Shown piece after piece: positions 20,123-47,687 of a stretch of 64,000 nt of DNA. The number at the start of each line of letters is the position of its first letter. Position 1 is the stretch's first letter. This stretch comes from a virus. The stretch lies in IMG/VR virus record IMGVR_UViG_3300020045_008546, positions 31,460-95,459 of that record. One strand, 5' to 3'. The position numbers and the translations under genes are program-made. The notes beneath the pieces were generated by a model. That model was given only the letters and a program-made list of their open reading frames with translations. It was not told the DNA's origin and searched no databases.

Positions 20123-20269
20123 ATCCGTTCTGGGCTAATGAAGAATTTTAAGTGTCAAGTTAAAGTCTTCCCAGAACGGATCACATATATTTTGTAAACG
20201 CAGCTAAATTGGGTAATGCAAAGTCTTTAATTCAATTCATTTATACTATAACTTGACAACACAAAAATA
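20123..20269 (-). promoter_or_regulatory. Structured 5' leader (pseudoknot type), copy A
   Basis: TATTTTTG box 20262-20269; 20249-20258 complementary to 20153-20162 inside hairpin 20123-20134/20170-20181. Confidence 0.7.
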
Positions 20270-20381
20270 CTAAAAACTATTTTAAAAACCAAATGAAAAT
20301 AAATAAAAAATATGTTGGTTAAAATTAGGATAAGAAATATAAAAGTTTCATATTTGCAATACAATAAAACAACTAAAAATT

Positions 20382-20774
20382 ATGAAAATAAGATTTGAGC
20401 GTGGCAAAAGTAAATTTTTCAAGCCCGATGAAGTGATACCATTTATGGTAATTATTGAGAAAAGCGAGGATGATGATTACTGTTATTTTGCTAGAACTAT
20501 TGATGAGGCAAAAGATTTTTATTCTCAATATCTAATGAATAACCGCGATCAGTTTCTTGATGATGTATCTTATGATTTAAGTAGTTTCTTAAACGTGTTT
20601 GATTTTATCAACGTAAGTAAGTTAGCTAAAACATTAGGCGTAAATGAAAGTCTTATGAGACAATACGCAGCAGGAAATAAAAAACCATCTAATAAGCAAT
20701 CTAAAAGAATAATAGATGGAATACGGGAAGTATCAAAAGAATTACTTGCAATTAATTTAATTCAAAACAACTAA
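20382..20774 (+). CDS. Bacteroidota-type HicB-like antitoxin with C-terminal HTH (orphan)
   Basis: VIIEKSED, TIDEAK..F, YDLSSFL..F.FINVSKLAK..GVNESLMRQYAAG.KKPS.KQ. Confidence 0.8.
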   Translation: MKIRFERGKSKFFKPDEVIPFMVIIEKSEDDDYCYFARTIDEAKDFYSQYLMNNRDQFLDDVSYDLSSFLNVFDFINVSKLAKTLGVNESLMRQYAAGNKKPSNKQSKRIIDGIREVSKELLAINLIQNN

Positions 20775-20778
20775 CAAA

Positions 20779-23700
20779 ATGAAAATACATAGCGAAACAA
20801 ATACAATAACAGATGTATCAGAATCTAACGGATGGTATAGTGTTAGATGTGGCTCAATGGGAACAGGCGTTAATAGCAAATACGGAGTAGTGCCAAAGGT
20901 TGGAGATATTATGACAGTTCATAGTACTACTATGTTTGGAACGATCAGAGGCATTGAAATTAACGGTAAGATGTTATTCTTTAAAAGTGATCAAGAACTA
21001 GAAGATCACAGAAAAAAAGAACTAGCTAAATACGAACAAAAGAAAATTGATGACTTCGCTAAGAATAAATCAAAACTAGATTCTGAATATGAATCTTTAC
21101 CACAAGTATTTAAGGATAGAATTGATAGATTTAGAACTAACAATCCTAATTTCAGGGTAGAATTTGAATCTTACGAATTATTTTGCTGTACAGAGGCGGT
21201 TAAGATAGCGGAAACATTAAAAACAGTTGAGGAAGTTAAATTATTTTGGAATGCTGATTGGGATAAACAAATGAAATTAGTTCCAATGCTAAATGAAGGT
21301 CATAGTGGCAATACTTTTGGGTGCGCCTGTAAATTAGCTGTTCTATATTTAGAATCACCTGAATTAGTTGCTAGAATACATGGTAGTTTATCACCATTAG
21401 TAGGATCGGAAGCATTTGGAGATATTAAAACAAACTAACCAATGAAAGACCTAAAACAACTAGTAATAGAAGAGGCGACAAACATTAAACTTTACGCCAC
21501 TGAAAAGGAGATTGATAATTTGGATATAGGCACTTTCGATGCGGAAAATGGGAATCGATGTATTTATGGACAAATGGTTGGAAATTGTTTTTCTTATGAA
21601 GCAAATTTATTATTAAATAAATGCACTAAACCTTATTCAAGAGAGCTTCATGTAGTGACAAGTCCAATTAACGATGAGTTTATAAATAATAGATCAGAAT
21701 TCTCACCAATAGAATACTATATTTTACAACCAAAATCTAAAAACAAAACACTAATTGACTTCATTAAAGGAGATATTCAAGAGTTAACCGTAGATATGTT
21801 ATGAAACCAAAAATAGGAGATAAAATATATATTCCTTCTGCTTTTTATATTTCAAGAGGCGAAGATGATGTTAAAGGAGGATTGGCTACAATAAGTATAA
21901 TTAAAGAATCTGATTTCTTGGCGAAAGACCATTATAATTACTTAATGATAGGCGTTAGGGGATTTGAAGGAACATTGTATAATTATCGTCATTTAATGGA
22001 AAAGCAAGATAAATTAAGAGAACAATTTGGAGAAGAACTAGCGGCTCACGATCCAGATATTAATACGCCTTGGATTCAATCAGGAGATATAGTTAATGGA
22101 AGTATTTATAATGGTCAAGACGTTTGGTAGCTATGGAACAAGAAACACAATTCAACAAGGCGGTTATAGTAAAAATGGATAGCCTTTATGTAACAGATGA
22201 TTTATCTTATAGTAGAGATATTCTCAAAGCAAAAGTCTTTAACATTAAAGATGCTAAAAGATTTGTTAAGACTAATAATGTTGGTGTAGTTAAAATCCTA
22301 AACCAATACGAATACAACAATATAATCTTAGATAGAATCGAAGAGTTAAAAGGTAAACTGTTAATACTGAAATAATGGGATTAAAAATAGTAAGTTTTCA
22401 AACCGCATTAGAAGCGAGAAACAAGGGATTTGTAGAAGGTAGTAATTATTATTACGACATATACACCGAAGAGTTAATAGATAATGGTAAAGCTATTTTT
22501 ATTAATGGATTAGATGGACGTTTAGTTGAAGCACCTTATCAGGCGTTATTAACTCAATGGATAAGGGAAAAACAAAATTTACATATATCTGTAAAATACA
22601 TGTCAGATGAAGTTGAAAATAATTACGAGGTAGATGTTTATATATCCTATAATAATTATCATGGATCAATACATAAAGAAATTTACGCCACTTACGAAGA
22701 AGCATTAGAAGGGGGTTTAATTAAAGGATTGGAACTAATAAAATAAACCAAATAACATTTGTATATTAAAATAATATATTGTACATTTATGTCATCCTAA
22801 CAATGGGGTGATTAAACAAAAGAAATATGAATAACAGTAAAGTAGATTTCAATAAAATTTATCAATACATTCCTTTTTGTTTAAAGTCTGGTCAAAGTGC
22901 ACTAGCTTTTGGTTTAGAAGATCCGCTAATAAAGATTGTTGATAACTATAACGTAATGAATTTTGTTGAAGGAAATACTTCTGCTAAAATTATATTATAT
23001 CCAATATCTGATTTAAATAATAAAATATTTTCAAACAAAGAATCCTTTATTCCATTAAATAGGCTAAATGATATTATTACTTTGGGGGATACTGATATTT
23101 ACAAATTAAATAGTTTTATTAAATCGCCTTGGACTTATTATTTTCTACCTCACTTGATTATAGAAAAATTATTTGAATGGAAGTTTGATATTTACTCTTT
23201 GATTGAAAATGATTTAGCTATTGATGTTAATACACTTAAAGATAATCCTTACAAATGAAAACGCTAGCATATTTTTTAAATAAAGTTTCATTGGAAAAAC
23301 ACGGTAATAATTGGTGGTTTATTATTAGTCATTTATCTCCCGAAATTATGCAACCTATAATTGATGAGGCATGTAATAGATATACAATGCAATGTTGTGA
23401 ATTTTTAAGACAAAGATGTGCTGATAATGCTACTACTTGTAAGTTAGAAAGTAAAACTAAGGATATTACAATAGTTAATTTGGATTCTATTTTAAACACT
23501 GAAATTATACTGCCGTAATATGAGCTACAACATAACAACTTGGAAAACAAAAAAGATTGATGGATTAAGAATACCTATTGATTGCTTTAACGGTAAAAAA
23601 CATAAACATTACCAACAAGAAGTAACGATTAATAACAGTCATGTAATTATAGAAGCCGGTGAAGGTAAAATTGAAGGATACTTACAGATTGATGATGCGG

Positions 23701-24868
23701 TTTATATTACAGATATAAGTATATGTGGTGAAACTTCTGGCACATTCTTTCGTGAAATATTTTATAACGCCTTAGAATCAGCAGAAGGAACTATGGAAGC
23801 TGTTTTAATTTGGGAAGGCGGTGATAATATTACAAGATTAGTAGTTAGTGAAGATGAATATTCAAACGAAGAAATAGAATTATGAATTATAAGAAAAAGT
23901 ATCAAATAGCATTAGTATGTATTATATTATATCAGGCAGCTATATTAGTCAATGAAAATAGTTTGATGTTCACTAAGATAATTAATTTCATATCCTTAGT
24001 TATAAATGTAGGCGTATTAATTTCAACTTTTGATAATAAATGAAACTATCAGAAAAAACAAAAGAACTTATCACAACGACATTAATTATAATCGCCTGTA
24101 TAATTACCATTGTTCTTATCTTAGGATTGGTTGTTGGATATTATTATTTCTTGTCGGAGTTTATATTGAAATGTTTAAATATTATCTTTAATCACAAATA
24201 AAAATGAGTAATTCGAGTAAATTTTGGGGTGTAATTGGTTTAATTGCAATGCTGTATGGTAATTATTTAATATATAATTTCATATCTTCTACCGATAAAG
24301 ACAGAGTAGATAAGCAATATTGCGGGAAAGTAGTTAAAAAATCAGATGAGGAAGTAACAATTAAACATGGAAGTAGAACTGACCTATATCTTATAGTTGA
24401 ATTTGATCAGATAGGATTGAGATCAATAGAAGTAGAGCCAAATACTTATTTTACACATAATAAAGGCGATAGGGTTTGTTTTGGATTAAACAATTACGAC
24501 TTAAACGGCAGAAAGCAAATGACTTTCAAAGAAAGTGCGCTAGATTTATTAAAGTTTCTATTCATGTTTCTAATTGGAATAGCAAATATAGTATTGATAT
24601 TTATAAGTATTGGATTGTCTATTGAAGCACTTAATAAAAAATTAGACGGGAAATGAATTTAAGATGTAATTGTGGTAATGAATTGCCAGATTCTGACATT
24701 GAATTTGGCGGTGAAAGTTGTAATGATGAAGGCGAATCTTACTATGTAGCTACTGTATATTGTGAAAAGTGTAACATATCACACGAGATTAGCGATTGGG
24801 GAGAATATGAAGATATAGATCATGTTAAAGAAGAATTCGTTTATAAAACTTATTTAACGCTTGGTTGA
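20779..24868 (+). other. Array of small hypothetical phage proteins
   Basis: Co-oriented overlapping ORFs; 23255-23518 is a paralog of 7107-7370. Confidence 0.7.
22759..22811 (+). promoter_or_regulatory. Repeated promoter with operator and 5' hairpin (copy 2)
   Basis: TTGTATATTAAAATAATATA..TACATTTA, then TCATCCTA-ACAA-TGGGGTGA. Confidence 0.75.
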
Positions 24869-24965
24869 AAGAAAATGAATTTTAGGAGGAAGTATTCAAA
24901 TGACTATCTGTTTTTAACGGGTAGTTATTTTTTTGTAACTTTACCTTATCATAAAACTACCAACA

Positions 24966-27614
24966 ATGAAAAAGTATTTAATCGCTTTACTTCTTTTATC
25001 TTCGTATATAGGGTATAGTCAAACAGTCTCTTCTTTACCTTCTAATCTTGGTTCGTTAGTTCTGTTTAGAGATAATCCGGTTACTTTAAAAGCTGTGTTC
25101 CCTTCTGGTTATTTATCCAGTTCAACTGTTTCGTCGGACGTGTATCAAATAACCGGAATCTCTGGAACCAAGATAGCTTCAATAATACCTACTACATCTA
25201 AATCAGGCGATACAATTAAAGTTTCACTTACCACTTCACAAGTAGGTAGATTAGCTAGTATTTCAGGATCAATAGGATTGTTTATTAAGATTAATACCAC
25301 TTACGTATTAGGTTCAACAATTACCGTTAGGGTAGGTTCAGGAAATGCTAATACTACGCCTTTTACAGTTAACTTACCTGAAATAGGTATTGTTAAAATT
25401 AATTTAGTTGGTGATGTAGGTTCTGCTTTAAGATATGCCCATTTAGCTGATTCATTAGCAACAATAGCAAAAACAGCTAGTACTAATGCACAATCTAATG
25501 CTTCAATAAGTATAGCAGCAAAGGATAGTGCAAGAATTTACGCCTTATCAACAGCTAATAAAAAGGTTTATACATCCGAAACATTAACTAATTTACGATC
25601 ATTAGCACCAACAGATACTAATTTAGTATACATTCTTTCGGATAAGCTAAGATACGGACAATTTAAATACGATCCATTAGACGTTAGTTCATTAGATAAT
25701 GGCGGTACTATAATCGTAACATCAGGCGGTAAAAGATTTAAAAGAATTATTCAGGGAACAGAATTAAGACCTGAATGGTTTGGCGCGAAAGTAGATGATG
25801 AAGTAGATGATGCACCTGCAATACAAGCTATGTTTAATGCAGTTTCACCGTCAGGAGCGATACTATTATTTTCATCAGGTATTTATTATGTAGGATCAGA
25901 ATTAACCTTTAAATCACAAACAACAGCACCGGCATATAATTACAAGATTTCTTTACGTGGTGCAGGGGTAGGGCGAACACAGATATTTGGCAAAGTAGGC
26001 TTTACTGGCAATATGTTTGAACTTAACACCGGAACAGATTCAGGAACATCAAAAGATTTATACATTACTATTCAGGATATAGAATTCAGGGCTAACACAG
26101 CAAGCAAGATTATAAACGCTACTGAAATAACAAGCGTTAAGATTTATAATAGCATGTTTTTCGGTGGTCAGGATGTAGGTATTCAGGTAGGCAATCCCGG
26201 AGGTATAGGGGGTTATTCTGTTTATATGTACAATAACTACCATAACGGACAAAGATACGGTAACGGTCAAAATAACGGGCTTATGAGGTTTAATAACATG
26301 CGCTTCGCAGTTATAGATGGAATGGAATCAGACGGGGGTAAATATGGCGTTGAATTCCTTGGATCTTCTGATAAAAACATTGTTATTAATTCCAAGATAG
26401 AAGGGACTAAAAGAGCAGGTATATTATTCGATAATACAAATGGAAGCGGAGGAGGTGAAAACAAGATCATTAATACAATGATTAACCCATATGCAGGAAC
26501 AGAAGCACAAGGATTATTTGATGGTCAAATTAATTGCATTGAGATTAACTCGCAAGGCGGGGGAAATATCGAGAATATAATCACAGGAAATACTTTATAC
26601 GCCCCTAGATTAACAAGCTTACCTAATGTATTTATTGTTAACAGTGAATCAGGAACATTTACACCGGGAGCAGGAGTAGAAGTATTAGGCTTAACATCAG
26701 GCGCACAAGGTCACATGGAAGGATTTAACACATCAGCACATAGAATGCTTGTAACAACTTATTCAGGCACATTTACAGTAGGCGAAACAATAAGACAAGT
26801 TAGCAATTCAGTTACAGCAGTTATAGCATCAGAAACACCTCGTATTAGCTCAGGAATAAAACTTTCAGGAGGCGGTGGAACTAATATTATAAACGGTAAC
26901 AACATCAGCGGATTACCTGTTTACGGAATTTATAACGAACAGAATGACAATGTTATTTCTAACAATACTATTCTAGCTAATACAGGACTTTACGCCAGTC
27001 ATACAGGTAGAATTCAGGTAACTAATAACTTCTTTTACAGCGCATCAGGAACAGGAATAAACAGGGCTAATATAGGTGAAATAATAAACACTTCTAACAG
27101 CTTTGTTGACGCAACTAATATAAACACCTCAGACTATTATTTAAAGTCCACAGGAGGCACGGTAACAGGAGCAACAGTACTAAGTGGAACTACTAATACA
27201 ATAACAGGATTAAGAACCACAGGAGACTTTTTACCAACTACTGATCAGAATACTAATGCAGGATCTGACGCGGCTAGATATTTATCAATGTATGGTATTT
27301 ATTTTAACGGTGACGCTTTTATAGCAAGAACAACATCAGGAATGAGTGTTCAAACATCAGACTTAAATACACGCGCTCAATTCGCTAATGATGGAAGTTT
27401 AATTATTCAACCCGGAAGTGGTAGTTTTAGCTCTATTGCCTCAGCAGCTTTGCAGGTTAATAGTACTTCAAAAGGCGCGTTATTACCCCGAATGACAACA
27501 ACACAAAGAGACGCTATAAGTTCACCAGCAGAAGGAATTGAAATATACAATATCACTGTTCATAATAAGCAATTTTACAACGGTACAGTTTGGAAGACAG
27601 TAGTTACGGATTAA
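24966..27614 (+). CDS. Tailspike/depolymerase-like beta-helix protein with N-terminal signal peptide
   Basis: MKKYLIALLLLSSYIGYS|Q; DNGGTII...KR and PEWFGAKVD..DDAPAIQA (pectate-lyase-3-like entry); ISNNTI beta-helix repeats; C-terminal KGALLPRMTTTQRDAI..PAEG..IYN. Confidence 0.8.
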   Translation: MKKYLIALLLLSSYIGYSQTVSSLPSNLGSLVLFRDNPVTLKAVFPSGYLSSSTVSSDVYQITGISGTKIASIIPTTSKSGDTIKVSLTTSQVGRLASISGSIGLFIKINTTYVLGSTITVRVGSGNANTTPFTVNLPEIGIVKINLVGDVGSALRYAHLADSLATIAKTASTNAQSNASISIAAKDSARIYALSTANKKVYTSETLTNLRSLAPTDTNLVYILSDKLRYGQFKYDPLDVSSLDNGGTIIVTSGGKRFKRIIQGTELRPEWFGAKVDDEVDDAPAIQAMFNAVSPSGAILLFSSGIYYVGSELTFKSQTTAPAYNYKISLRGAGVGRTQIFGKVGFTGNMFELNTGTDSGTSKDLYITIQDIEFRANTASKIINATEITSVKIYNSMFFGGQDVGIQVGNPGGIGGYSVYMYNNYHNGQRYGNGQNNGLMRFNNMRFAVIDGMESDGGKYGVEFLGSSDKNIVINSKIEGTKRAGILFDNTNGSGGGENKIINTMINPYAGTEAQGLFDGQINCIEINSQGGGNIENIITGNTLYAPRLTSLPNVFIVNSESGTFTPGAGVEVLGLTSGAQGHMEGFNTSAHRMLVTTYSGTFTVGETIRQVSNSVTAVIASETPRISSGIKLSGGGGTNIINGNNISGLPVYGIYNEQNDNVISNNTILANTGLYASHTGRIQVTNNFFYSASGTGINRANIGEIINTSNSFVDATNINTSDYYLKSTGGTVTGATVLSGTTNTITGLRTTGDFLPTTDQNTNAGSDAARYLSMYGIYFNGDAFIARTTSGMSVQTSDLNTRAQFANDGSLIIQPGSGSFSSIASAALQVNSTSKGALLPRMTTTQRDAISSPAEGIEIYNITVHNKQFYNGTVWKTVVTD

Positions 27615-27634
27615 GTTTGGTTTGATGATAGTTT

Positions 27635-27667
27635 AAATTCCCGTAAGATATATTCCTACGGGAATTT
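27635..27667. terminator. Bidirectional terminator between convergent genes
   Basis: AAATTCCCGTAAG-N7-CCTACGGGAATTT. Confidence 0.8.
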
Positions 27668-27671
27668 TATT

Positions 27672-28403
27672 TTAAACTAATGTCTCAGACACAATAGCAT
27701 AAATCTTATCAATATGCCCTAGTCTTTCTGCTAATTCAAGATTAGATTCTCTTTTCTTCTTCATGCAGGCATTTAAGTTAACACCATATCTATAATATAG
27801 TTTCTCATAAATAGAACGCCATACACTTTGTTGATCCAATCCCTTTGCGCCGCAATATTGATTAACTATTTGTCTAATGTTAGCTCGTTTAGTTAAATCA
27901 GGAACTTTATCAGTAGACCTTTCGACACTTAACAATAATTTAGTTGCCTCAGCCTTTTCTTTTTTGTTGTCCTCAATATACTTTTCAATATTACTAACCG
28001 ATTCTTTTAATAAACCAATTTGCTTTTCCTGATCGGCCAACACCTGAGCACTTTGAAGAATTAATTCAATTTGACTTAATGGCTTAGGTTGTTCAAAAAC
28101 TACTTTATTAGCCTTTTCTAGCTCAATAAAATAAAGCCTAACGATCTTTCCACGTTCTGTTCTTTGTAGCATGGATATTTCTTTTGCCATGTCTATTATA
28201 ATAGCATAATCAACTCCATCTCTTCCTCCTGAGCTTTTCACCCGAATAGGGGTAAAGTCTAAACCCTCTTCAAATCCATATTTAAACATTGATTTAGCCC
28301 ATGAACTAAAATCTTTTCTAACGCCTAATGATTCATGTAAATTCTTTAAACTTACAATATCAACACCGTTTTCATTTTTTACTACTTTAACTATTTCTTC
28401 CAT
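27672..28403 (-). CDS. AntA/AntB-family antirepressor
   Basis: LHESLGVRKDFSSWAK, F.EGLDF, DYAIIIDMAKEISMLQRTERGKIVRLYFIELEK. Confidence 0.9.
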   Translation of the reverse strand: MEEIVKVVKNENGVDIVSLKNLHESLGVRKDFSSWAKSMFKYGFEEGLDFTPIRVKSSGGRDGVDYAIIIDMAKEISMLQRTERGKIVRLYFIELEKANKVVFEQPKPLSQIELILQSAQVLADQEKQIGLLKESVSNIEKYIEDNKKEKAEATKLLLSVERSTDKVPDLTKRANIRQIVNQYCGAKGLDQQSVWRSIYEKLYYRYGVNLNACMKKKRESNLELAERLGHIDKIYAIVSETLV

Positions 28404-28418
28404 AATTGTAAAATAAGA

Positions 28419-28515
28419 AATCCCAACTAACTAAAAGGCTGCAACCTCTTTCGTCAATCGGGATTAATATAATTTTGGTTATCTGTTGCAGCAGATTTAT
28501 CTATACACAAATATA
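28419..28515 (-). promoter_or_regulatory. Structured 5' leader (kissing loop), copy B
   Basis: TATATTTG 28508-28515; hairpin ATCTG-CTGCAA-CAGAT with loop complementary to the TTGCAG loop of hairpin 28419-28465. Confidence 0.72.
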
Positions 28516-28526
28516 GTAAAATTAAC

Positions 28527-29213
28527 TTAACTTTCCAAAGTATTTTTTGACCTAATAAAACCAATAGAAACGATAATCATTAACACTATTTCAAAATAAT
28601 AAGGTATATGACAAACAAAATAAAGTGCCTCATGATTATCCCAAGTAAAATACATATTATATAAAGCACTCGTGAACATTGAAGAGCAATTATAGGCTAG
28701 TAATCCACAGACTATACAAAAATGGCTTGAACGCGTTAATTCGGCCAAATAAACCTCTTCTATTAACTCATATAAAAACAAAAAGCAATACGAACATATT
28801 ATTATACATTTAATAGGTGAAGCATATAAAACAAATTTAATATCACTAGAAGTTAAAGAATCTAAATTGCAAATAGCTAAATCTATAAAAAATATAATAG
28901 TAAAAATAACACCACAATATTTAATATACTTTTTATATCCCAAATCAAAAAATACATTGTAAAAATAATATGACACTATCCAGAAGCTAACTATTAACCA
29001 TAAATTATTATAAGCTATATTGTTAATTCTATTAGCTGAATATATATCTGTTATAATATCTATAATTAATTTAACTATTAAATAATAAAAGAAAATGCGT
29101 AAGGACTTTGATTCATCCCTACGCATTAACAATATTATTATTGGGAATATTGTGGATATCAACACTCCAAAATGTAATGGATAATTTTGAAAGTATTGTA
29201 TCTGTTTATCCAT
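28527..29213 (-). CDS. Seven-transmembrane protein, putative peptide receptor
   Basis: Seven hydrophobic segments, NNIAYN and F...GLL.Y motifs, no cytoplasmic output domain. Confidence 0.75.
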   Translation of the reverse strand: MDKQIQYFQNYPLHFGVLISTIFPIIILLMRRDESKSLRIFFYYLIVKLIIDIITDIYSANRINNIAYNNLWLIVSFWIVSYYFYNVFFDLGYKKYIKYCGVIFTIIFFIDLAICNLDSLTSSDIKFVLYASPIKCIIICSYCFLFLYELIEEVYLAELTRSSHFCIVCGLLAYNCSSMFTSALYNMYFTWDNHEALYFVCHIPYYFEIVLMIIVSIGFIRSKNTLES

Positions 29214-29217
29214 ATAT

Positions 29218-29502
29218 TTACCTACAATCTGGTGGGCATGGGCTTCCTTCTGACATTGCTTTATAAGTCAATACGCCTGACTTGAATACCAATTCGATAA
29301 CTGTTTTAGTTTTACCGTCAATTAGTCCATGCTTAATATTAACACCATCTACGGTTGAAATATCAACTCCTGCGATAAGCTCCTTAATCGTATCTATACT
29401 AAAAAATTCACTCTCGATATACTTAGATCCCTTTTTAACTTTCCCTGCCCTATGTTTTTCAGTTATCTTATCAGCAGTCGCTTTGTCAATTAATTTACTC
29501 AT
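29218..29502 (-). CDS. Small protein ending in GSPCPPDCR (PCPPxC family)
   Basis: C-terminal PCPPxC motif; 4 bp from the 7-TM gene; TAGTTTTG promoter box at 29528-29535. Confidence 0.75.
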   Translation of the reverse strand: MSKLIDKATADKITEKHRAGKVKKGSKYIESEFFSIDTIKELIAGVDISTVDGVNIKHGLIDGKTKTVIELVFKSGVLTYKAMSEGSPCPPDCR

Positions 29503-29608
29503 TATATCTGATGGTTTTATGTGTCTTCAAAACTACCAAAAACTAGGTAATTTTAAAAACCGTTTAATCAATTTGAAAAAATAAATTGAAAATAATTGCA
29601 ATTAAATT

Positions 29609-29656
29609 AGGCACTTAAATTAAATATACTTACATTTGAATATCGAAACGAATCGA
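29609..29656 (+). promoter_or_regulatory. Repeated promoter with 5' hairpin (copy 3, degenerate operator)
   Basis: TACATTTG 29631-29638, then TCGA-AACGAA-TCGA. Confidence 0.6.
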
Positions 29657-29675
29657 GAAATAAACAAAATAGATT

Positions 29676-29861
29676 ATGTATATTTTAACTAATTAATTTG
29701 AGGATGAATTTATTAATTCAGGAGATGATGAAAATATGGAAGATTTCACGACAGATATTAATGATGCAATGAAATGGAGTGATGATCGAAATGCTATTCG
29801 CATGTCTGAGCTATTCACAAAAAGAACAGGTATTAAATTAATTATAAAACAGATATTATGA
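29676..29861 (+). pseudogene. Small ORF broken by one in-frame TAA (29694-29696)
   Basis: MYILTN*FEDEFINSG...FTTDINDAMKW...KQIL*; stop overlaps next ATG. Confidence 0.5.
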
Positions 29862-37537: not shown

Positions 37538-37554
37538 TCCCCTCTATCGTTTTC

Positions 37555-38862
37555 TTATCCGAAATTCCAAACCAATTTTTTCATAACATGCTGACTATAA
37601 GCGGAATAGCGCAAACTATCGAGGCCGTGATTCCACAGGTCGACAGGCGTATTAGACTTTTTATCATGCCAAACATAATTATTCAATTCTTTTAGCAAAT
37701 TTACACTATTTGGATCAATAACCAACTTAAAGTCTTGTAACAGTGCTATGCCTGCGCTAATCGAACCCGGACCTTTAACAGCCTCTTTAATATTACAACC
37801 TAATTTCTTTAATTCTTCTATCAATCTAGGCTCTGCGCTATCAGCATAAATTATACTTTTACCGGCATATTCTAGGTTAAATGCAGCGATTTGGCTAGTA
37901 GTTAACTTAGGTCTGTATAGCAATTCCTTAGCGTATATAATTTTACGTGACTTATCTATACTCGTTTGAATCAAAGTAGTAGGATCAATACTAAAACCAT
38001 AATCCTGACCATAAACACTTGGTGCAACTTCCCTAAATTCACCTATTTCCCAATTAGTATAAATAACACCCTCGGCACTATTTAACCAACCGCCTAAAAC
38101 AACGTATTTAAAGTAGTTCCAAGCCTTTACCATCATAGGACTTGCGTATTGCTTCTCTTCTTTACTTAAAGCCTCGTATTCCTCATATAAGCCGCGCTTC
38201 TCTTCGAAGTCTTCAAAGATATTATCAGCTATGAATTCTCGCTCTATATCTAAGTATGAAGAGTGAATATAAAGAACATTACCTTTAACACCGTTAAATC
38301 CTTCGTTTACGCCCCTTGCTTCGAATAATTCAGTATAGACCCAATGTTCTTTTGTTGTAGGGTTTAGAATTAAAATACTAAGGTTTCTAACATCTAATGA
38401 ACGTATTGACTTTCGTATTTTATCCCAGTTATCAAAAGAGGTCATTTCCTCAGCTTCTTCTAAGATAAATACTGAAAAGTTCTTTAATGACTTTAAATTA
38501 GCAGTTTGATTTCCACTACTTGTTTTAACGCCTTTAAATACAATCTTGCTTTGATTCTTTATTCCTTCAATCCTATCTTTCTGAACATTAAAATCAGCTT
38601 GGCAATTAAGTATATCTAACTTCTCTTTAAACTCAGGTATAATACTATCCTCAGCACTGGTTAAGGTATATCTGGTATAAAGTATACGATGGGCATAGTC
38701 CTTACTGGCAACACAACTAAAAAGACCGACACCAAATGACTTTTGGGAATATCGGCCTCCTGTTATAACTACTGTATCTACTTTATGTAATGGATTACCC
38801 TCTTTACATCCTAGCCACTCAAATAAAGGCTCAAACTTTTTACTGAGTTTAATTTCACTCAT
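37555..38862 (-). CDS. terL: Terminase large subunit (PBSX/Terminase_3 type)
   Basis: TGGRYSQKS Walker A, ILEEAEE Walker B, LNP, GQDYGFSIDPT, ADSAEP, NHGLDSLRY. Confidence 0.95.
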   Translation of the reverse strand: MSEIKLSKKFEPLFEWLGCKEGNPLHKVDTVVITGGRYSQKSFGVGLFSCVASKDYAHRILYTRYTLTSAEDSIIPEFKEKLDILNCQADFNVQKDRIEGIKNQSKIVFKGVKTSSGNQTANLKSLKNFSVFILEEAEEMTSFDNWDKIRKSIRSLDVRNLSILILNPTTKEHWVYTELFEARGVNEGFNGVKGNVLYIHSSYLDIEREFIADNIFEDFEEKRGLYEEYEALSKEEKQYASPMMVKAWNYFKYVVLGGWLNSAEGVIYTNWEIGEFREVAPSVYGQDYGFSIDPTTLIQTSIDKSRKIIYAKELLYRPKLTTSQIAAFNLEYAGKSIIYADSAEPRLIEELKKLGCNIKEAVKGPGSISAGIALLQDFKLVIDPNSVNLLKELNNYVWHDKKSNTPVDLWNHGLDSLRYSAYSQHVMKKLVWNFG

Positions 38863-39439
38863 TACGAACTCCGTTACTAAATATGATAGTTGTTTGTTCT
38901 ATCTTTTCGCCATTAGTAGTATGATCAATTTCTTGTTTATCGCGCCATTTTTTAGGTTGACGGTTTTTAAGCCAATTTAAAGCAGCACCCGGATCTGGTG
39001 GCACTTCTTTTACTACTACTTTTTTCTTATAAGCATCTACTGAAATACCTTCGTTATCAACATCATCTTCTGATATAAAACTATTACCTTCTTTAACTAC
39101 TATTTTCTCGTATGTAACCTCTTCATAGCGGTATCCCATAGCCCTTTTATGGAAAGATGCAGTTACTTCACCATCAGCAATATCACGACCGCGCAAAACC
39201 CCCTCGGAAAATTCTTTATATTGTACCATCCATTCTTTTATGGTATCATAATGAACTTCGAAGTAAGTAGCTAATTCTGGAACTGTTAACCCTAATAATG
39301 TTAATTTATATGCTTGATCTGCAAACTCTGGTTTATACTTAGTAGGTCTTCCGCTATTAGTTAAACCAAGTGCGTATGAATTACCTTCTGGCGCGGGCAT
39401 ATCGTTTTCCTCCTTTCCTTCGTCCGATATTTCAGACAT
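38855..39439 (-). CDS. terS: Terminase small subunit
   Basis: GRPTKYKPEF, HTH, PPDPGAALNWLKNRQPKKWRDKQE; overlaps terL. Confidence 0.88.
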   Translation of the reverse strand: MSEISDEGKEENDMPAPEGNSYALGLTNSGRPTKYKPEFADQAYKLTLLGLTVPELATYFEVHYDTIKEWMVQYKEFSEGVLRGRDIADGEVTASFHKRAMGYRYEEVTYEKIVVKEGNSFISEDDVDNEGISVDAYKKKVVVKEVPPDPGAALNWLKNRQPKKWRDKQEIDHTTNGEKIEQTTIIFSNGVRNE

Positions 39440-39493
39440 AAAATTTAGTTTAAATTAACTTGTAATAATATTCAAATATACAAACACTTTTTA

Positions 39494-40429
39494 TAAAAAG
39501 AAAGTTGAGTTTTTTAGTCCCAACTTTCAGATTAACCTTCGAGGCGTATGGGACATCTTTTCTAGTTAATTACTTTCTACAACATTACTAAATTCATAAG
39601 TAGTTTTTGTTGTGCTAATTCCGTTATCAGGTAAGGCGTTAAATCTTAGTTCATGTCCTATCCAATCTTGAATAGGTAAAGTAGATTCAGATTTAATATA
39701 TTTATCAACAACCGCCTTTGCAATATTTAGCTCTGTTTTAAAACATTGCGTACCATTCCAATAGTTTGTTAAGTTTTGCATGTTATTTTGTTGGATATTT
39801 GATATATAAATTTACGAAATAAAATCATAAAAAGAAAGTTGAGCTACATTACCTTAAAAAACTTCTCTAATGAATATTCAAGCTCTTTATATCCTTTTAA
39901 GTGGGAAAAGTTTAATTGGTTTTTAGTCCATTCACCATAAGCTATTTCTTCAAGAACTTCATCATCTATTAATTCTGGATTATCGCCAAAGAATTTTAAG
40001 CACGCAGTCGTTATTCTATTTAAATGATTTTCTGGCAACTCGATTTCTGGTTTATCAATGTTTATACATCCGTTATCATATTGCATATTACGCATTAATT
40101 GAATAGCGATATCAGTAGCTTGAATATAGTCTAATTTCTGTCTCATGCTATACCTTGAATTTCTGCTAAATTTGATATTTCAAAACCCTTATAGCTTAAT
40201 ATTCCTTGAATTGCATAAATAACCTGAGCCTTAGTATCTCTATAAACTACACATCCCGGATCGCCAACATTAGAGGTAACAGGAACAGCCATCCACCCGG
40301 AACCATCTTCTAACTCTTTAACTTCTACGTTTACCCATTTTTTAGTTCTCGCCCAACCTTCATACATTGCGCTTCTTTGGTCGTCATTCATATTTGATTA
40401 TTATTTTTAAGGTTAAAAAGAAAGTTGAG
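39494..40429 (-). repeat. Three exact copies of TAAAAAGAAAGTTGAG (terminator 3' arm) at 39494, 39828 and 40414
   Basis: Copies 1 and 3 form full hairpins with CCAACTT; copy 2 is a half site abutting a stop codon. Confidence 0.8.
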
Positions 40430-43400
40430 TAATTAACCCAACTTCTAAAATTATTCATCTATCATGTGCTTCCTTAAACTTAGCAATCGCTTTATTTAAA
40501 TCTATCAACTCTTGTAAAGTCATTACAGATTTAGCCTCCCTAAACTTTCTTTCGAATTCTTTCATTTGTTCATTCATCTTTTTTTATGTTTAAAGAGTTT
40601 AACCATTTATTGAATTTTGTAATAGATGCTATGAATATAAATACAAATCCTATAAAAGATAAAATTGATGATGTTAATACAAATAAAAAGTATAAGGCAG
40701 ACCCTGTAAAGTTCCCATGTTTACTGACATCAATCCATAAAGATACATCCCCCGCTATACAATATAAAATTGTTATGACACTCCAAAATATTTCAGAATT
40801 AGACCATTTATCATCATCTTGGTCATTAGAGTAACCAACTCCACTTTTAGCTATTTTATTTATTAAATACGGGCTAAAAAACATCATAATTATTTCTTTT
40901 TGTTTAGTTTATATAGTAAAGTATAAATTTGTCTTATTCTCTTCCATTCGTTATTTTTCATAGTATTATATCTCCGTTAATTTCATATCCCGAACGCCTT
41001 AATATTTGCTTTACGTCAAAAGGTTTAGCATGTTTAATCATTACCTTATTAGCGTTTTCTATCCTTGATCTATCTAGTTCACTGAATAATTCAGGATGAT
41101 TATTTATTTTCCTTACAAGTAGTCTATATAAATCAGATAGGGCGAATTCAAGTGTATCTGTTTCCATTATGCGTATTCATATAATTTATTAAACTCGGTT
41201 GCGTTAACTACTCTTACTTGTTTATCTGTATCTATATATAAAACATCGCTAGGCGTTAATTTATATACTCCGTTAATAGTTGGCACTAAATAAAGACTAT
41301 CATTCTCATGGGTAATATTTACGCCTTCAAAATGGATACTCCAATGTGGATGTTCTGTTGTTTCTTTCGCATATTGAACAAACTCTTCGAATGTCAATGC
41401 AAATATTGTTACCGGCTTCTTTTTATAAAATGGCATAGCCCTTTTTGTTTAAGTTTTTAAATAACTGGCTTTTCATTAGTATACCAACTAATAGTTAATT
41501 CTTCATCCCAATAAAGACTAAAATTATCACCTCCAAAACTTTTATTGTCTTTTAATTGCAATCTCATAAAAGCATCGCCTTTACTTGTTTGAGTTGGGAT
41601 AGCGTATATACCGTCAGGTGCATTGCCATCAGGAAATCTTTTCTTTAAATAATTTCCAGCTTCATTAAATTCTGCTAACATAATCTTGTCTATTTAAATT
41701 GTTTATAATCCGTAAATTGTATCCGTTCCAAAAGTTTTGCTATTCACATACTTCTCGCCAGTACTAATAATAACTTCACTTTTACCTATATTCTCATTAG
41801 TAGCGTAAACTATTCCTCCTAATCCTTTTTTATATTCCTTTGAATTGCCTAATCCATCGGTAGTCATTACATTAGAATAATCTACCGAGCAAGGTAAGGG
41901 TGTTTTATTTAACTCATTTTGCCTAGTCCAGTAATCATCTTTCAAATCAGGCGTTGGATAATAGTCTTCTGAATTAATCGGTTTATTCTCATACCAAGCT
42001 TTTAAATCATCAGGCGTTCCACTTTCTACTGAGTTAATATCTATCTGATTAAGGTTAGTATTCTCCTTAATTGCTTCGGTGTTTCTATTAACCGACTTTG
42101 TTAGGTCTGTTATTGCTTTTATTAGTTGTTTCGTGTAGTCCAATGTAGTATTTGTTTAAAGTAATTAATAAACTTGTCTCTTCTTTTTCTTCGTTCAATT
42201 CTTTTATTTACACTCATCAGGTACTTATGGAATTCTGGTCTATGCTGTAAATAAATGTATACTTCTACGTTAAAATCATTTCTCATATCACCTTAATATT
42301 TTCTCGTAAAACTCATTTTGATTATACTTTTCGCCTACTACAATTTCATATTGATGATCTAAATAAGCAATAGCACTTTCTATTCTTTCTTTTTCAAACT
42401 TATTCCTAATGTTATCAAATTTATCATCGCCAATATGTTTTAGCATTTCATCCATTGTTCCTAATAGGTTACATTGAAGATAATGTCTTATATTAAGCAA
42501 CTCATAAACGTGTTGTTCTTTTGCTAGTTTAGTTAAATCTTTCATAATTAATTCAATTTTTTACCAATTCTTTTCTCTAAAACAGAAACTAATTCATCGA
42601 TTGTAGGCTTTAATATATAATTCATTTTAAATGACTTCGTAGCGACTAACATTGTTCTCAAAATGTGATTATCATCAGATTTTATTCTTGACTTAATATA
42701 TTTCCTTGCACCTTCATAATCTTCATTAGCAAACATTATCTTAAAGTCTCTATATATTTGAAGTAAATATTCAGTTTCGTTCATAGTTTCTTGAATTCAT
42801 TATTAGCATCTATTAAAGCCTCCATACATAAGTCATAAGCATATTGTAATACCTTTTCGCCTATTTTAGGTATCAATTTATTTCCAAACAAATCAATTGA
42901 TACCGGCATTGATCTTTGCAAATCAATGGATGTAGATAAATTCTCAATATTTGATTTTAAGATTTTAACTTTATTATAGGCCTCGTTTCTTATATCCAAT
43001 TCTTCTTTTGTCATGATACAATAATATTTTGATATTCAAATAATTCGTTAAACTTATATAGTTTACCCTCAAAATCTTCAACAATACAATATCCTTCATC
43101 AATCATCTTTTGTAGTTGATTATCGTTAATAAATAGTACTTCATTTGATTTTTTGTATTCTTTGTCTTCCATGGGTTATATTTGTTTAATACAAATGTTC
43201 AGAATATAAAGTTGTTTTACCTAAATCATCGCATATAAGTTGATTCGCTTTTAAGGCAACTATCATAGCTTCTTCTCTATTTAAAAATCTATTTAAGTTA
43301 GTTAAAAATCCTTGTGTGCTACCTCTAAGAACTTTAATCCTTATCTGATCTTGTTCTTTATTAGTTTGCCAATCAGGATAAAACCATTCGGCTAATTGTT

Positions 43401-44012
43401 GAATACATTGTCCGTGCCTATGCCCACATACTACTATTCCAGTATCTATATTAGTACACATTAATCTTCTATAAGGATTACCATCATCATAATGAATAGC
43501 AGCGCAAAGGATAGTTTCTTTCATTTGTCTTCAACAAATTCATATAAAGGTTTAATTATCCATTTCTTATCATCAAAGTATTTCCCTGAATCTCTTTTAA
43601 TACTATCTAATGCTTGATCCGCAATAAATTTATTGTCATATATTTTGCTACTCCAACGAGTATAAAAGGATTTCTCTATTCCACCTAATGCTTCGTTAGT
43701 ATAAGTAGTTTCAAATTCAATTACATATCCGTATAGTTTCTTTTTATATGGAGAATTATTTACATATTTAGTATAACTTTCTATTATCTCTAATATCTGA
43801 TCTGATTCTAAATTATAAAATATAGTATCAATATCATATGAAGCACCAACTTCTTTTTGAATAAATTCCTTTAACGTTAATTTCATCTTGGTGTTATTTT
43901 ATCAAAGTCTTTGCCGATAGTTTCCCAATCACTTCTTAACGCCTCTTCATCTGTTTTATTAATTATCTTTTTTATTTCAGGCGTATATATAGTTGGGTTT
44001 AAATTAAATATA

Positions 44013-44318
44013 CTAGATATTGCCTTTAATATTGACTTCATGTAACTTTTCATTTTCTAAAAAATCTTTAAATGAATCAAAATTTAATACCGGCACTTTG
44101 CCAACAAATAAAGATAACTCTATAAATTTACTAAGCTTAGAATTAAAATTACCATTAAGTATTTTTGAAATATACCTCAAAGGAACATCCATCTGTTCGG
44201 CTACTTCGTGTTTAGCTATATCATTCTCTTTCATGTAATCGTCTAGCAATCTAAATGCTTCACATTGTAAAATAGTTAACCAATAACCTTTACTTTTAAT
44301 TAGTTTTTCCCTTTCCAT
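44013..44318 (-). CDS. XRE-HTH protein of Bacteroidota HigA-like antitoxin type (orphan)
   Basis: RE.LIKS.GYW...Q, YM.EN....EVAEQM.V...YISKILNG.FNSKLSK.IELSL..GKVP. Confidence 0.75.
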   Translation of the reverse strand: MEREKLIKSKGYWLTILQCEAFRLLDDYMKENDIAKHEVAEQMDVPLRYISKILNGNFNSKLSKFIELSLFVGKVPVLNFDSFKDFLENEKLHEVNIKGNI

Positions 44319-44740
44319 TAAACTACATATTTAAATTCATCTTCATTCCATTGTCTAACCTTCGCAATAGGTTCACTAAAATTACAAAAGCAAGGTTCTT
44401 TCTGCCATTCGCCTTCCAACATAAAAGTTAAAGCTGTTTCTTCTAAAAGCTTATAAATAATATGAATGTGATCAGCTTCTATTGTGTATGATGTTCCCGG
44501 TAATCTTTCAATGTCTTCGTAGAACCAAGTGCCATAATCCATTATATGAAACACTCTTTCAATAAAACCGCCTTTAATTACGTGTGAAGTAATTTTAAAC
44601 GGATGCGAATGCGCTTGTTGATCTAATGATTCAGGCGAAAGAAATTGATTAAAAGATCCTTTAACACCAAAATCTGATTCTAAATGAAATTTATGGAAGA
44701 TATTTGAAAGTGGCTCGTGTCTTAATGTTGGTTGATTCAT
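44318..44740 (-). CDS. Cupin-fold protein
   Basis: AHSHPF...VIKGGFIE and DHIHII metal-binding motifs. Confidence 0.7.
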   Translation of the reverse strand: MNQPTLRHEPLSNIFHKFHLESDFGVKGSFNQFLSPESLDQQAHSHPFKITSHVIKGGFIERVFHIMDYGTWFYEDIERLPGTSYTIEADHIHIIYKLLEETALTFMLEGEWQKEPCFCNFSEPIAKVRQWNEDEFKYVV

Positions 44741-46692
44741 TGTTTAGTTGTTGTGTTTATAATATAGCATTTACGATAACTTCATCTAAATACAGTTCAA
44801 ATAAATTCCATGCAAGCTCTTTGTTTTTTAACATTGATCTATGGTATCCAATAGTTATCTCAAAACTAACCTGTTCGCAAATTAATGTAACATCAGACAA
44901 AGGCATTCCGCAAGTTTGACCTCCTGACATATGTTGCCTAGGTGACTTCCATTCTATTAATGTTTTTATATAATTTATTGTTTCTTGTTTAGCCGTTTCC
45001 ATACACTAATATACAAATTAATTAATTGATAATCAAACTTTTATTGATTTATTATTCAACAATTTAGCCCTTAATACTAATCTTCCCGTACGACAATCAA
45101 ATTCTGAAAACCAAACTTTAAATTTATGCCAACCAATTACTTTCTTTATTTCCCTTGCAATGATATTAGTATTCAAAGTTGTAGCGTATTTGCCTATCCA
45201 ATTATCAATATTTGGTTTAACTTTATCACATAGATCATCTGTAAAATCTCTTGTGCCAAAAATTACTATTGACTTTATTATTAAATGTTCCATATTTTAT
45301 GCTGAATATCCTAGTTCTCTTAGAAAGTCCGTTAGCTCAAAACAAGTAGGTTTCTTTTTAGGGTCGCCCCAATAGCTATAACTACCATCATCTCTAAGAT
45401 ATAGATTTGAGCCATCGCCATCCATAATAGTCACATCAACACCTCTATCGCATTTTTTCATAGATTCTCCCATAAAGAAAGAAAATATTTTAGAACAATC
45501 ACGAGTACTATTTATAATAGAACTCAAAGGCTTATATTTAGGCGTAAACATACCCATTATATGCTCAGCTAATCCTTTAACTTGCGCATGTCTAACACAT
45601 GATACGCTTGAATATATAGCTTCTTGTAAGTCTTCTATTGTTGGTTTCATTGTTTATATTTTTTAATAGTTATATTAATGCAAATGAAACAAATAGTCCA
45701 TATTAAAATATTATAATAATAGAACCAATTATGAGGCGAATTTACTGCAAGTGCTATAAATAATATTACGTTAAAAGCCAATAGAAACCTATTGAATTTC
45801 ATTAGTTTTAAATTTTTCATTTAGTTAACTCTCTATAAAGGTTTAATACATATTGAAAATCAGCTATCTTTCTTTCTACTAAAAAAGCTAATAAATCATG
45901 TTGGTTTCTAGTTAGGTTCTTTATCTTACCTTGATGCTCTTTTAAAAATCTTTCGAAGTCTGGCGAGTAATTCATTTCGTTAAAACTTTAAGTCCATACT
46001 CATATTTCAAATTAACCTGTTGTTGTACTAAATGAAACTTTTCATCGTACTCTTTGTCTGTTACTCCTTCAATACGCTTTATTAGTAATGATGTTGCACT
46101 ACTTTCGTGCTCATGGAATTCTAGCTTCAAAAGGCGTTCTCGCAGTAGGGTTAGGTATTGCTCTCTGTTTGACATATTACATTTCTTTTAATTGATATAA
46201 CCTCTGTTCGTATTTAATTTCCAAAACATCTATTACTTCATAATTAAGATAATTACTATCATCGCATTTATCTACATATAATATTTTATCGCCAATATTA
46301 TAACCGTCTTTCATGTATATTAAAAAGCCGTCATGAGGGATACTCATTTCTTCACTATCTAATTCTATTACGTGTATCATAATTATTTATAAGTCATTAA
46401 CATTTTATCATCATTATTTTCTAATTCAATACTTATGCAAGTACTAGCAATGTCATTTTCAACTTCAAACCATTTACCTACTATCCTGTATCTTTTTTCG
46501 CCTACAATAATTAATTGTCCTATATCAAGGCAATGATTAAATTCAATATCCCCTAAGTAGATATCTTCTTTGTTTTCGTATGTATGAACCTTTATAGTCA
46601 TAGTTATTTTGTTAAACTGGTTTGTTTACTAATTAAATTGGTGATATGTTTTATATACTTAAAAAGGCAAATTTAATGAGTTAATATCGATG

Positions 46693-47547
46693 TCAATTTC
46701 TCTTAAATGTATATCCGTTAATTTCTCCCCCATATTTACATTTTTTAATTATCCATGATCTACTAACATTAAAATATTCAGAAGCTATTCTATCATTGTC
46801 AAATATTTTAAACAAATCACCTTTATTATTAAAGCACGAAATGGTTATATATTTACTTTTAATATTTACTATATGATTTCTATCGATTGAAAAAACACAG
46901 TCTTTTACTTTATTTGTTCTACAATATATATTATTACTTATAGTAGACCTAGCAACTGACATGAATTTTGCGGCTTCGCCAATAGAAGAGAATTCCCTAA
47001 TATAATCTCCTTGCAAGTTAAATTGATAAACTATTAATTGTATTCCCTTTTCTGTAATAAATTTAGGAATAAATCCTTTTTTATAGTCTTTATAATATGC
47101 CCATAAATATCCTCCACTATAATTAGTATTATGTATCCCCCTCCATATCGCATCTTTACTACAATTTGAGTCTAATGCAGCATCTACAATTTTATCATAT
47201 ATTTTTATTAATAATCCATCTAGTGAAAATTTGCAAACTTTAACAAAAACACTCGCGCCAAAAGAACTACCGCCCGGTCTTATATTTAATGATATTTTTT
47301 TATTTTTAAAATGGGATATATATTTTACTTCTCTTATATCGACCTCTTCTTTTGTTAGATTATTTTCTATTATTTTACATGTATGACATTCCCATCCATA
47401 CTTTTTAATTGATCTATATATTTTATGTTGACTTTTACATTTTAAAGTTTTATAACAATAAATTCTTTGCTTAAAATTTTTAGTTTGTCCTATATAAACA
47501 AGCCCCTTGGGGTTAACTATTTTATAAATACAATATGGATTTAACAT
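46693..47547 (-). CDS. GIY-YIG homing endonuclease with NUMOD1 repeats
   Basis: CIYKI...VYIGQT..FKQR; VYQFNLQGDYIREFSSIGEAAK. Confidence 0.92.
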   Translation of the reverse strand: MLNPYCIYKIVNPKGLVYIGQTKNFKQRIYCYKTLKCKSQHKIYRSIKKYGWECHTCKIIENNLTKEEVDIREVKYISHFKNKKISLNIRPGGSSFGASVFVKVCKFSLDGLLIKIYDKIVDAALDSNCSKDAIWRGIHNTNYSGGYLWAYYKDYKKGFIPKFITEKGIQLIVYQFNLQGDYIREFSSIGEAAKFMSVARSTISNNIYCRTNKVKDCVFSIDRNHIVNIKSKYITISCFNNKGDLFKIFDNDRIASEYFNVSRSWIIKKCKYGGEINGYTFKRN

Positions 47548-47550
47548 AAA

Positions 47551-47687
47551 AAAAGTCGCTCTAATTAAAAGAATATTTCAACTGCCAAGTAGAAAATCCT
47601 ATTAGAACGACTTTTATCTATTTTGTAAATGAAGAGTCTTTTAACAATATTCTTTTAAAAGATATTCTACTTGGCATTACAAAGTTA
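47551..47687 (-). promoter_or_regulatory. Structured 5' leader (pseudoknot type), copy C
   Basis: TAACTTTG 47680-47687; 47665-47676 perfectly complementary to 47583-47594 inside hairpin 47551-47565/47601-47615. Confidence 0.72.

Follow-up and report, generated by a model that had tools for sequence, protein, structure and literature searches.

In phage lambda, the PR' promoter, 6S RNA, and the tR' terminator form a promoter-proximal terminator unit that is released by Q. In the cobalamin riboswitch, the L5-L13 kissing loop joins an upstream hairpin with the expression-platform hairpin, and RNA-RNA pairing is the regulatory principle of the P1/P7 c4 and P4 CI immunity RNAs and of the IncI/IncB rep pseudoknots. 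Additionally, a kissing loop steers a terminator in the guanidine-IV (mepA) riboswitch (PMC11611296), and T4 lowers the transcript level of its nuclease gene mobE by means of a weak-to-moderate intrinsic terminator located at that gene's 5' end (PMC2790892). Here, we analyzed three leaders (A, B, and C) in a window of 64,000 nucleotides (i.e., bases 31460 to 95459 of the 95,459-bp virus record IMGVR_UViG_3300020045_008546; G+C content, 30%), where they precede a double winged helix-turn-helix (wHTH) gene, an AntA gene, and a GIY-YIG nuclease gene, respectively. These leaders belong to a real, uncatalogued family of cis-acting RNAs of Bacteroidota phages. Judged from sequence and predicted structure, their best explanation, to which we assign a probability of about 0.5, is that each would act as a promoter-proximal terminator gate or dosing valve before its gene. 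We establish how the leaders are built, that A and C are paralogous, that the loop pairing is specific and covaries, that it is tied to a U-tract, and that selection acts on the sense RNA.

The likeness to lambda PR'/tR' consists of a constitutive promoter, an intrinsic terminator about 100 to 200 nt on and before the genes, and a short terminated RNA as the default product. Unlike the lambda unit, the phage leaders have no identified Q-like binding element or factor, are numerous in each genome (with one gene behind each copy), and contain a built-in, covarying loop-loop contact. As in T4 mobE, nuclease genes are among the targets, in that GIY-YIG or HNH genes follow leader C and several of the leaders in relatives. 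The mobE terminator, however, is a plain hairpin (9 bp with a 4-nt loop) inside the coding region (PMC2790892), and mobE has neither its own promoter nor a long-range pairing. With the guanidine-IV and cobalamin riboswitches, the leaders share two hairpins with pairing loops, the second of which is tied to the terminator decision. Riboswitch loops are conserved ligand pockets, whereas the loops of the phage leaders are hypervariable and only their complementarity is kept. Moreover, the kissing hairpin of guanidine-IV competes with a separate terminator, while that of the phage leaders is itself terminator-like and faces no competing helix. Given these differences and the lack of an Rfam match, membership in the guanidine-IV (mepA) class was rejected.

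An earlier reading of the window, made from the sequence only, had compared the leaders to the c4/ant and IncI/IncB rep systems, and the likeness is that complementary segments occur in one leader upstream of an antirepressor gene (B) or a Rep-like gene (A). Neither comparison held. Unlike the P1/P7 c4 and P4 CI RNAs, the leaders have no Rfam match to these classes (at the gathering score or at E values up to 5), possess a U-tract terminator, and would give rise to a processed trans-acting RNA only hypothetically; antisense promoters are not enriched family-wide. Unlike the IncI/IncB pseudoknots, they lack a conserved leader peptide (an upstream open reading frame [uORF] is present in C only), and the 3' partner lies in the loop of the U-tract hairpin, neither at the ribosome-binding region nor next to the start codon. 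Membership in both groups was therefore rejected. A check against Rfam 15 yielded no gathering-level match in the window or in eight kin loci, a search over the leaders at E values up to 5 returned nothing relevant (c4 included), and literature searches found no description of a kissing-loop terminator leader. The suggestion of the sequence-only reading that these are a distinct class of cis-acting RNA of Bacteroidota phages, one with no Rfam match, was thus sustained.

Anatomy and paralogy of the three leaders

The leaders, all three of them on the minus strand, consist of the following parts.

20262 to 20269 (-): leader A, -7 box TATTTTTG of the sigma-A type, with a TTG 20 nt upstream as the -33 element
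20249 to 20258 (-): leader A, 5'-terminal segment TGTCAAGTTA, partner of the hairpin loop; begins 4 nt past the box, in the same register as in C
20185 to 20198 (-): leader A, conserved spacer 14-mer TTTACAAAATATAT; AAAGACT at 20222 to 20228
20123 to 20181 (-): leader A, terminator-like hairpin with a perfect 12-bp basal stem (20170 to 20181 / 20123 to 20134)
28508 to 28515 (-): leader B, -7 box TATATTTG, with a TTG 20 nt upstream
28481 to 28496 (-): leader B, small 5' hairpin SL1 (ATCTG / CTGCAA / CAGAT)
28485 to 28492 (-): leader B, kissing segment GCTGCAAC in SL1
28419 to 28465 (-): leader B, terminator-like hairpin SL2 with a 13-bp basal stem that includes three G·U pairs
28438 to 28445 (-): leader B, apical segment GTTGCAGC of SL2, complementary to GCTGCAAC over 8 nt
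47680 to 47687 (-): leader C, -7 box TAACTTTG, with no -33 TTG
47665 to 47676 (-): leader C, 5'-terminal segment TGCCAAGTAGAA, partner of the hairpin loop
47646 to 47658 (-): leader C, second segment TTAAAAGAATATT (13 nt), exact complement of 47565 to 47577 on the 3' side of the hairpin loop
47618 to 47677 (-): leader C, 19-codon ORF (MPSRISFKRILLKDSSFTK)
47616 to 47629 (-): leader C, conserved 14-mer TTTACAAAATAGAT; AAAGACT at 47635 to 47641
47583 to 47594 (-): leader C, loop segment TTCTACTTGGCA, complementary to TGCCAAGTAGAA over 12 nt
47551 to 47615 (-): leader C, terminator-like hairpin with a 15-bp basal stem that includes one U·G pair

The boxes, complementary segments, and hairpins that had been described for A, B, and C are all present when the minus strand is read, as are AAAGACT and TTTACAAAATAnAT, which are common to A and C. 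The box lies 4 to 11 nt upstream of the 5' partner in the three leaders. A small 5' hairpin with a pairing loop presents this partner in B; A and C instead use a linear 5'-terminal segment. In leader A, the exact 10-nt complement of TGTCAAGTTA (i.e., TAACTTGACA, 20153 to 20162) lies in the apical loop of the hairpin, which is followed by a U-rich tail (UUGUU) and then by the GTG at 20117, 5 nt past the hairpin end. In leader B, SL2 is followed by a U-rich tract (UUUCUUAUUUU, 28410 to 28420), and the ATG at 28403 is 15 nt on. The 8-nt match of B takes in the closing pair of SL1 and the top pairs of SL2; the complementarity reported for its two hairpin loops is genuine, but only 4 to 6 nt of it lie strictly in loops. 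In leader C, a U7 run (47548 to 47554) is followed immediately by the ATG at 47547, and the second pairing, which the sequence-only reading had not mentioned, crosses the first (in the order a-b...a'-b'); the counterpart of the second pairing in A comprises 6 nt only (AATGAA/TTCATT).

The -7 box of Flavobacterium spans positions -12 to -5 (PMC9723704). With the boxes of A and C placed likewise, transcripts are predicted to start at about G20257 and G47675, so that the 5' segments would stand at the extreme 5' ends, and the AUG of the uORF of C would fall at or before the transcript start and be cut off. This 19-codon uORF exists, as the sequence-only reading had noted, but it is not conserved in A and is probably a non-functional part of the leader.

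The window contains 39 perfect inverted repeats of at least 10 nt at spacings of 15 to 160 nt, compared with about 36 expected from composition; therefore, no single repeat is significant on its own. When each hairpin loop was compared with its own transcribed leader, dinucleotide shuffles reached the observed match length in 41/5000 (A), 26/5000 (B), and 9/5000 (C) cases. The leaders also fold better than shuffles (z = -5.7, -5.7, and -4.4 for A, B, and C, respectively). Leader B folds well as the minus-strand RNA only (z = -4.6, versus -1.0 for the plus strand), because of the three G·U pairs in its stem.

A local alignment of A and C over about 87 nt scored 25.2, compared with 12.0 +/- 1.6 for shuffles, none of which reached the observed score (0/1000; z, about 8), while the same test against dinucleotide shuffles gave no alignment for the A-B and B-C pairs. 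By this sequence comparison, A and C are true paralogues (i.e., one element that was copied), to which B is unrelated in sequence. In the sequence-based alignment of A and C, 12/12 basal-stem pairs are kept (100%; slid controls, 22 to 48% paired), with four pairs altered on both sides and one U-A changed to U·G. At aligned positions of the long-range helix, a T-A in A is replaced by C-G in C, and another T-A by A-T. The most conserved block is the 14-mer TTTACAAAATAnAT, immediately upstream of the hairpin; its 11-mer core (TTTACAAAATA) occurs twice in the 95-kb genome, in A and C only. A covariance model built from A and C (R1) found no further copy in the genome, and its weak matches in kin contigs pointed to the canonical two-hairpin family described below. 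Searches of IMG/VR, metagenomes, and kin contigs turned up no orthologue of this A/C subtype; scans for exact patterns of the A/C core gave six chance matches in coding DNA in IMG/VR and none in the metagenomes. The contribution of the window is the long variant represented by A and C, with its linear 5'-end partner and conserved 14-mer.

A two-hairpin leader family in related phages

We scanned 1.03 Mb (i.e., the genome itself and 80 kin loci from TerL-related contigs) with a structural descriptor. About 22 of the 40 hairpins located just before a start codon follow one plan. It begins with a -7 box (TAnnTTTG or TAnnTTAG), which is accompanied in about half of the elements by a -33 TTG at 19 to 20 nt (logo of 23 elements). 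A small hairpin (stem, 4 to 8 bp; loop, 6 to 10 nt) starts 3 to 14 nt past the box and is followed by an A/U-rich spacer of 14 to 25 nt and a large hairpin composed of a 10- to 13-bp basal stem, an internal loop, a 3- to 7-bp apical stem, and a 6- to 10-nt apical loop. In canonical members, a U-tract comes next, and the ATG stands after 7 to 30 nt of unstructured A/U-rich sequence; their two apical loops are complementary over 6 to 9 nt in a sequence that differs in nearly every copy. Leader B conforms to this canonical two-hairpin kissing-loop form, of which about 20 instances exist in related phage contigs. The sequence-only reading had seen one architecture in the three leaders of the window. 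The shared plan (i.e., box, 5' partner, spacer, long hairpin with a complementary apex, and start codon) was confirmed in relatives, as was the retention of pairing between differing sequences; what did not survive is the independence of the three cases, since A and C are paralogous and B is a separate, canonical subtype.

The pairing is specific to each copy. A match of at least 7 nt between the loop and its own upstream region occurs in 16/40 cognate pairs, compared with 7.1% of non-cognate pairs, and the sum of cognate loop pairing was reached by 0/20000 permutations. Promoter-proximal large hairpins with a 7-nt match carry a U-tract in 16/24 cases (20/24 when U's absorbed into the stem are counted), compared with 8/64 of those with no such match. 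This tie between the U-tract and loop pairing gives the hairpin the appearance of an intrinsic terminator rather than of an element that sequesters a start codon or ribosome-binding site, and the GC-rich stem is directly followed by the U-tract, as in intrinsic terminators. An ATG lies within 40 nt after 15/17 promoter-bearing elements; in L150 and L153, it is about 20 nt downstream.

Applied in full, the descriptor matched 19 times in the kin DNA (932 kb) and nowhere in Nonlabens phage P12024L or in unrelated phages that carry AntA (267 kb). Prophage relatives in Dyadobacter, Chryseobacterium, and Sphingobacterium genomes also lack the element within the DNA examined. Restricting stems to Watson-Crick pairs left 6 descriptor matches; admitting G·U raised the number to 21, and admitting A·C instead gave 7. 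Since G·U but not A·C is tolerated, selection acts on the sense-strand RNA and not on DNA palindromes.

An analysis of 12 members with RNAalifold was discarded, because the underlying MAFFT alignment was too imprecise, and an alignment to a covariance model took its place. This model was iterated from eight members and does not encode the loop contact. In the resulting alignment, 94% of cells are paired, compared with 56% in shuffles (a comparison in which the alignment leans toward the model), and 17/18 pairs are altered on both sides. New sites recovered by the covariance model alone (L154 and L142/L145) show 7-nt loop-loop complementarity. Relatives bear out the sequence-only reading on this point: pairs covary, and loop complementarity recurs in newly found members. 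The family is defined by structure and not by sequence, of which little is conserved.

In six kin members, the large hairpin has an internal loop with AGUA on the 5' strand and GAA on the 3' strand, at these positions.

L127:3837-3879
L155:232-274
L120:351-393(-)
L143:1275-1317
L106:6583-6629
L109:13948-13990

We take this internal loop to fit the consensus of the bulged-G (sarcin-ricin/loop E) motif; it may serve to position the apical loop or to bind a protein. The second-best match of the family covariance model (R3) in the window (29088 to 29170, minus strand; 18 bits; E, 0.76) comprises two hairpins and a U-tract in the 5' part of a 7-TM gene upstream of antA, and it is probably due to chance.

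A candidate terminator gate and its rivals

In the terminator gate that we favor, the host sigma-A RNA polymerase would initiate at the TAnnTTTG box, and the transcript would begin with a small hairpin (B and the canonical members) or a linear segment (A and C, the paralogous long variant). After 15 to 85 nt, a long, terminator-like hairpin, GC-rich at its base and followed by a U-tract, would form, ending 3 to 15 nt before the start codon, and its apical loop would pair over 6 to 12 nt with the 5' element as a kissing loop or pseudoknot. Some polymerases would then stop at the U-tract, such that only a fraction of the local transcripts would enter the gene, and the module would also terminate transcripts that arrive from the gene before it. 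The long-range contact would tune how often termination occurs, most likely by stabilizing the terminator, or would make the terminator dependent on some factor. A precedent for such a gate is the intrinsic terminator that limits the T4 homing endonuclease gene mobE (PMC2790892).

The placement of the modules can be followed in the 20 elements for which the end of the upstream ORF is on the contig: the -7 box lies 5 to 11 nt past the stop of a co-oriented upstream ORF in 11 of them and overlaps the end of such an ORF in 2 others. With the box directly behind the upstream stop, the module occupies the entire intergenic space, and no other terminator intervenes. Conventional terminators in the kin phages have 3- to 9-nt loops and seldom precede an ATG.

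Several points weigh against the gate. The tail of leader A (UUGUUGUG) is a poor U-tract, and a simple terminator scan misses the leader hairpins, since their loops exceed 8 nt. In the absence of an orthologue of the A/C subtype, the covariation between A and C depends on two sequences. Model R3, run with filters off, ranks B first in the window at 19.1 bits and an E value of 0.46, which is not significant, and ranks C fourth at 17.3 bits, likewise not significant. No alternative (antiterminator) helix was found. Kissing is sterically compatible with the folded terminator, so there is no evident route by which it would alter termination, and an efficient terminator would require an antitermination factor for the downstream genes. 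The classical attenuator was considered separately and rejected: the promoter region, small hairpin, spacer, hairpin arms, and tail show background complementarity only, none of it specific to cognate pairs.

An alternative that we consider unlikely, although it is the strongest of the rivals, is that the leaders are modules of RNA stability or punctuation that delimit monocistronic units and involve no regulated termination. The downstream mRNA would have its 5' end capped by the compact kissing fold, which would also shield the 3' end of the upstream transcript from exonucleases. The location of the 5' partner at or a few nucleotides from the predicted transcript start, the position of the modules directly behind the stop codon of the upstream gene, and the lack of alternative pairings that would suggest a switch are consistent with this explanation. 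However, an ordinary hairpin at the 5' end plus an ordinary terminator would suffice for such roles, and neither the covarying loop-loop complementarity nor the position of the promoter upstream of the terminator would be explained.

It is more doubtful that the terminated product of about 90 to 150 nt is a regulatory RNA. In this case, the free product, or else an antisense RNA arising from the spacer, would pair in trans with nascent transcripts of its own locus in the manner of the leader-derived immunity RNAs of P4 (CI) and P1 (c4) or of plasmid countertranscripts. A promoter with a terminator is the anatomy of a small RNA gene, the pairing sequence differs in each copy, and the spacer of each of the three leaders has a -7-like box on its other strand, as follows.

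20188 to 20195 (+): leader A, antisense box TATTTTGT, inside the 14-mer
47619 to 47626 (+): leader C, antisense box TATTTTGT, inside the 14-mer
28470 to 28477 (+): leader B, antisense box TAATTTTG

TAnnTTGY is a promoter variant in Flavobacterium (PMC9723704), and TATTTTGT fits this variant. From these boxes in A, B, and C, antisense RNAs would run across the 5' partner. Nevertheless, such boxes are not enriched family-wide (4/23, compared with 2.3 expected; reached in 66/300 shuffles), all of them lack a -33 TTG, and c4 has no match in Rfam. The 14- to 25-nt spacer would fit the geometry of an intramolecular kissing contact, and the position of the ATG after the elements is as expected of a cis-acting leader. 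An elaboration that seems similarly improbable treats the pairing sequences as address codes, with a stable short RNA from each module whose two loops match its own locus alone. The free RNA or an antisense RNA would then compete with the intramolecular contact on nascent transcripts, which would amount to gene-specific RNA feedback on termination and a phage-wide set of orthogonal riboregulators. In a variant, the contact would discriminate locally initiated from read-in transcripts and thereby serve as a one-way valve between genes.

Translational control has a slim chance of being correct. In this case, a pseudoknot and a leader peptide would gate the start codon, as in IncI/IncB rep, or the hairpin would mask the initiation region, as in late-expressed genes of T4. 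The extended basal stem of C pairs UUUAU immediately before the G of the AUG, the 19-codon ORF of C spans both 5' segments, and translation initiation in Bacteroidota is sensitive to mRNA structure (PMC6847099). Against this stand the lack of conservation of the uORF in the paralogue A, its AUG at or before the predicted start, the canonical ATG 7 to 30 nt past the hairpin in unstructured A/U-rich sequence, and the 3' partner in a hairpin loop and not beside the start codon. Finally, although inverted repeats of 8 to 10 nt occur at chance frequency in the whole window, a DNA-level feature (i.e., protein-binding sites or cruciforms) or a coincidence in AT-rich DNA is already largely refuted by the tolerance of G·U but not A·C, the far better folding of B as the minus-strand RNA, sequences that differ per copy such that one protein cannot read them all, the cognate versus non-cognate comparison (0/20000 permutations), and the fixed orientation before the ATG.

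Genomic setting and significance

The promoters of the window are of the Bacteroidota type, for which a sigma-70 promoter scan was uninformative. The large terminase shares 41 to 46% identity with those of Nonlabens and Riemerella phages and 48 to 72% identity with those of many uncultured IMG/VR contigs. The genes downstream of the three leaders are as follows.

19194 to 20117 (-): double-wHTH gene downstream of leader A; two HTH regions, with weak RP-C, HTH_36, and DUF6945 matches
27672 to 28403 (-): AntA gene downstream of leader B
46693 to 47547 (-): GIY-YIG plus NUMOD1 gene downstream of leader C

The start of the wHTH gene is the GTG at 20117, according to the 307-aa gene call of the protein database; the following ATG is at 20051. 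Among 5.8 billion protein clusters, the wHTH protein matched only itself, and no match was found in IMG/VR or in the phage collection. Apart from one homologue with 62% identity (P0003), the GIY-YIG gene has distant relatives only, and the leader element is absent from the upstream regions of these distant relatives.

In related phages, the genes that follow the leader are mostly replication genes and homing endonucleases.

Primases, a helicase, and RecT: DUF3987/Prim-Pol primase, ResIII helicase, RecT, DnaG-type primase, and BT4734-type primase
Other genes: AAA_24 ATPase, DUF6291, two HNH/NUMOD4 nucleases, and a GIY-YIG nuclease

The view that the leaders control potentially toxic or fate-determining DNA-binding genes was thus too narrow, as relatives place primases, helicases, RecT, and AAA ATPases behind them as well as HNH and GIY-YIG nucleases. 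Leaders with an identical large-hairpin loop stand before a primase gene in L155 and L120 and before a GIY-YIG gene in L127 (L127:3780-4572), which suggests that the nuclease gene was inserted between the leader and the primase gene in L127.

Other elements were also observed. A second promoter class has seven copies, which read TTGTATATTAAAATAATATA, with a palindromic spacer between a -33 TTG and a -7 box.

Window: 16881(-), 22761(+), 34825(+), 48060(-), 55322(+), and 57202(+)
Genome C1: about 11287(+)

A few nucleotides on, there is a small hairpin, the loop of which is usually (U)AACGA(A), and then an A-rich stretch and an ATG; this class may constitute a regulon of its own that has a conserved operator site or RNA. 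The leader on the dUTPase side (14000 to 14169, minus strand) is a closed structure with a 10-bp GC-rich terminal stem (14033 to 14042 / 14147 to 14156; z = -3.3); it has no U-tract and does not belong to the leader family. In genome C1, a strong hairpin and a U7 run (L168:2177-2232, plus strand) stand directly before the first tRNA of the phage's tRNA cluster; the 5' arm of this hairpin (ACTTGG) is complementary to CCAAGT about 50 nt upstream, and the site is a weak match of model R1 (E, 0.64). At 54415 to 54451, in a gap of 80 nt that precedes the gene at 54477, there is a near-perfect 16-bp hairpin (TAACTTAACTTATAAT / ATTGTAAGTTAAGTTA; z = -4.0).

Gene control in Bacteroidota phages is little known, and their hosts have unusual promoters and do not rely on Shine-Dalgarno-led initiation. 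The natural copies of the leader, with their differing but matched loops, provide ready orthogonal variants for examining the effects of tertiary contacts on intrinsic termination. If the leaders are indeed terminator gates, a group of Bacteroidota phages would time or dose their replication genes, antirepressor, and selfish nucleases by means of a compact RNA device, i.e., a terminator with its loop held by the transcript's own 5' end.

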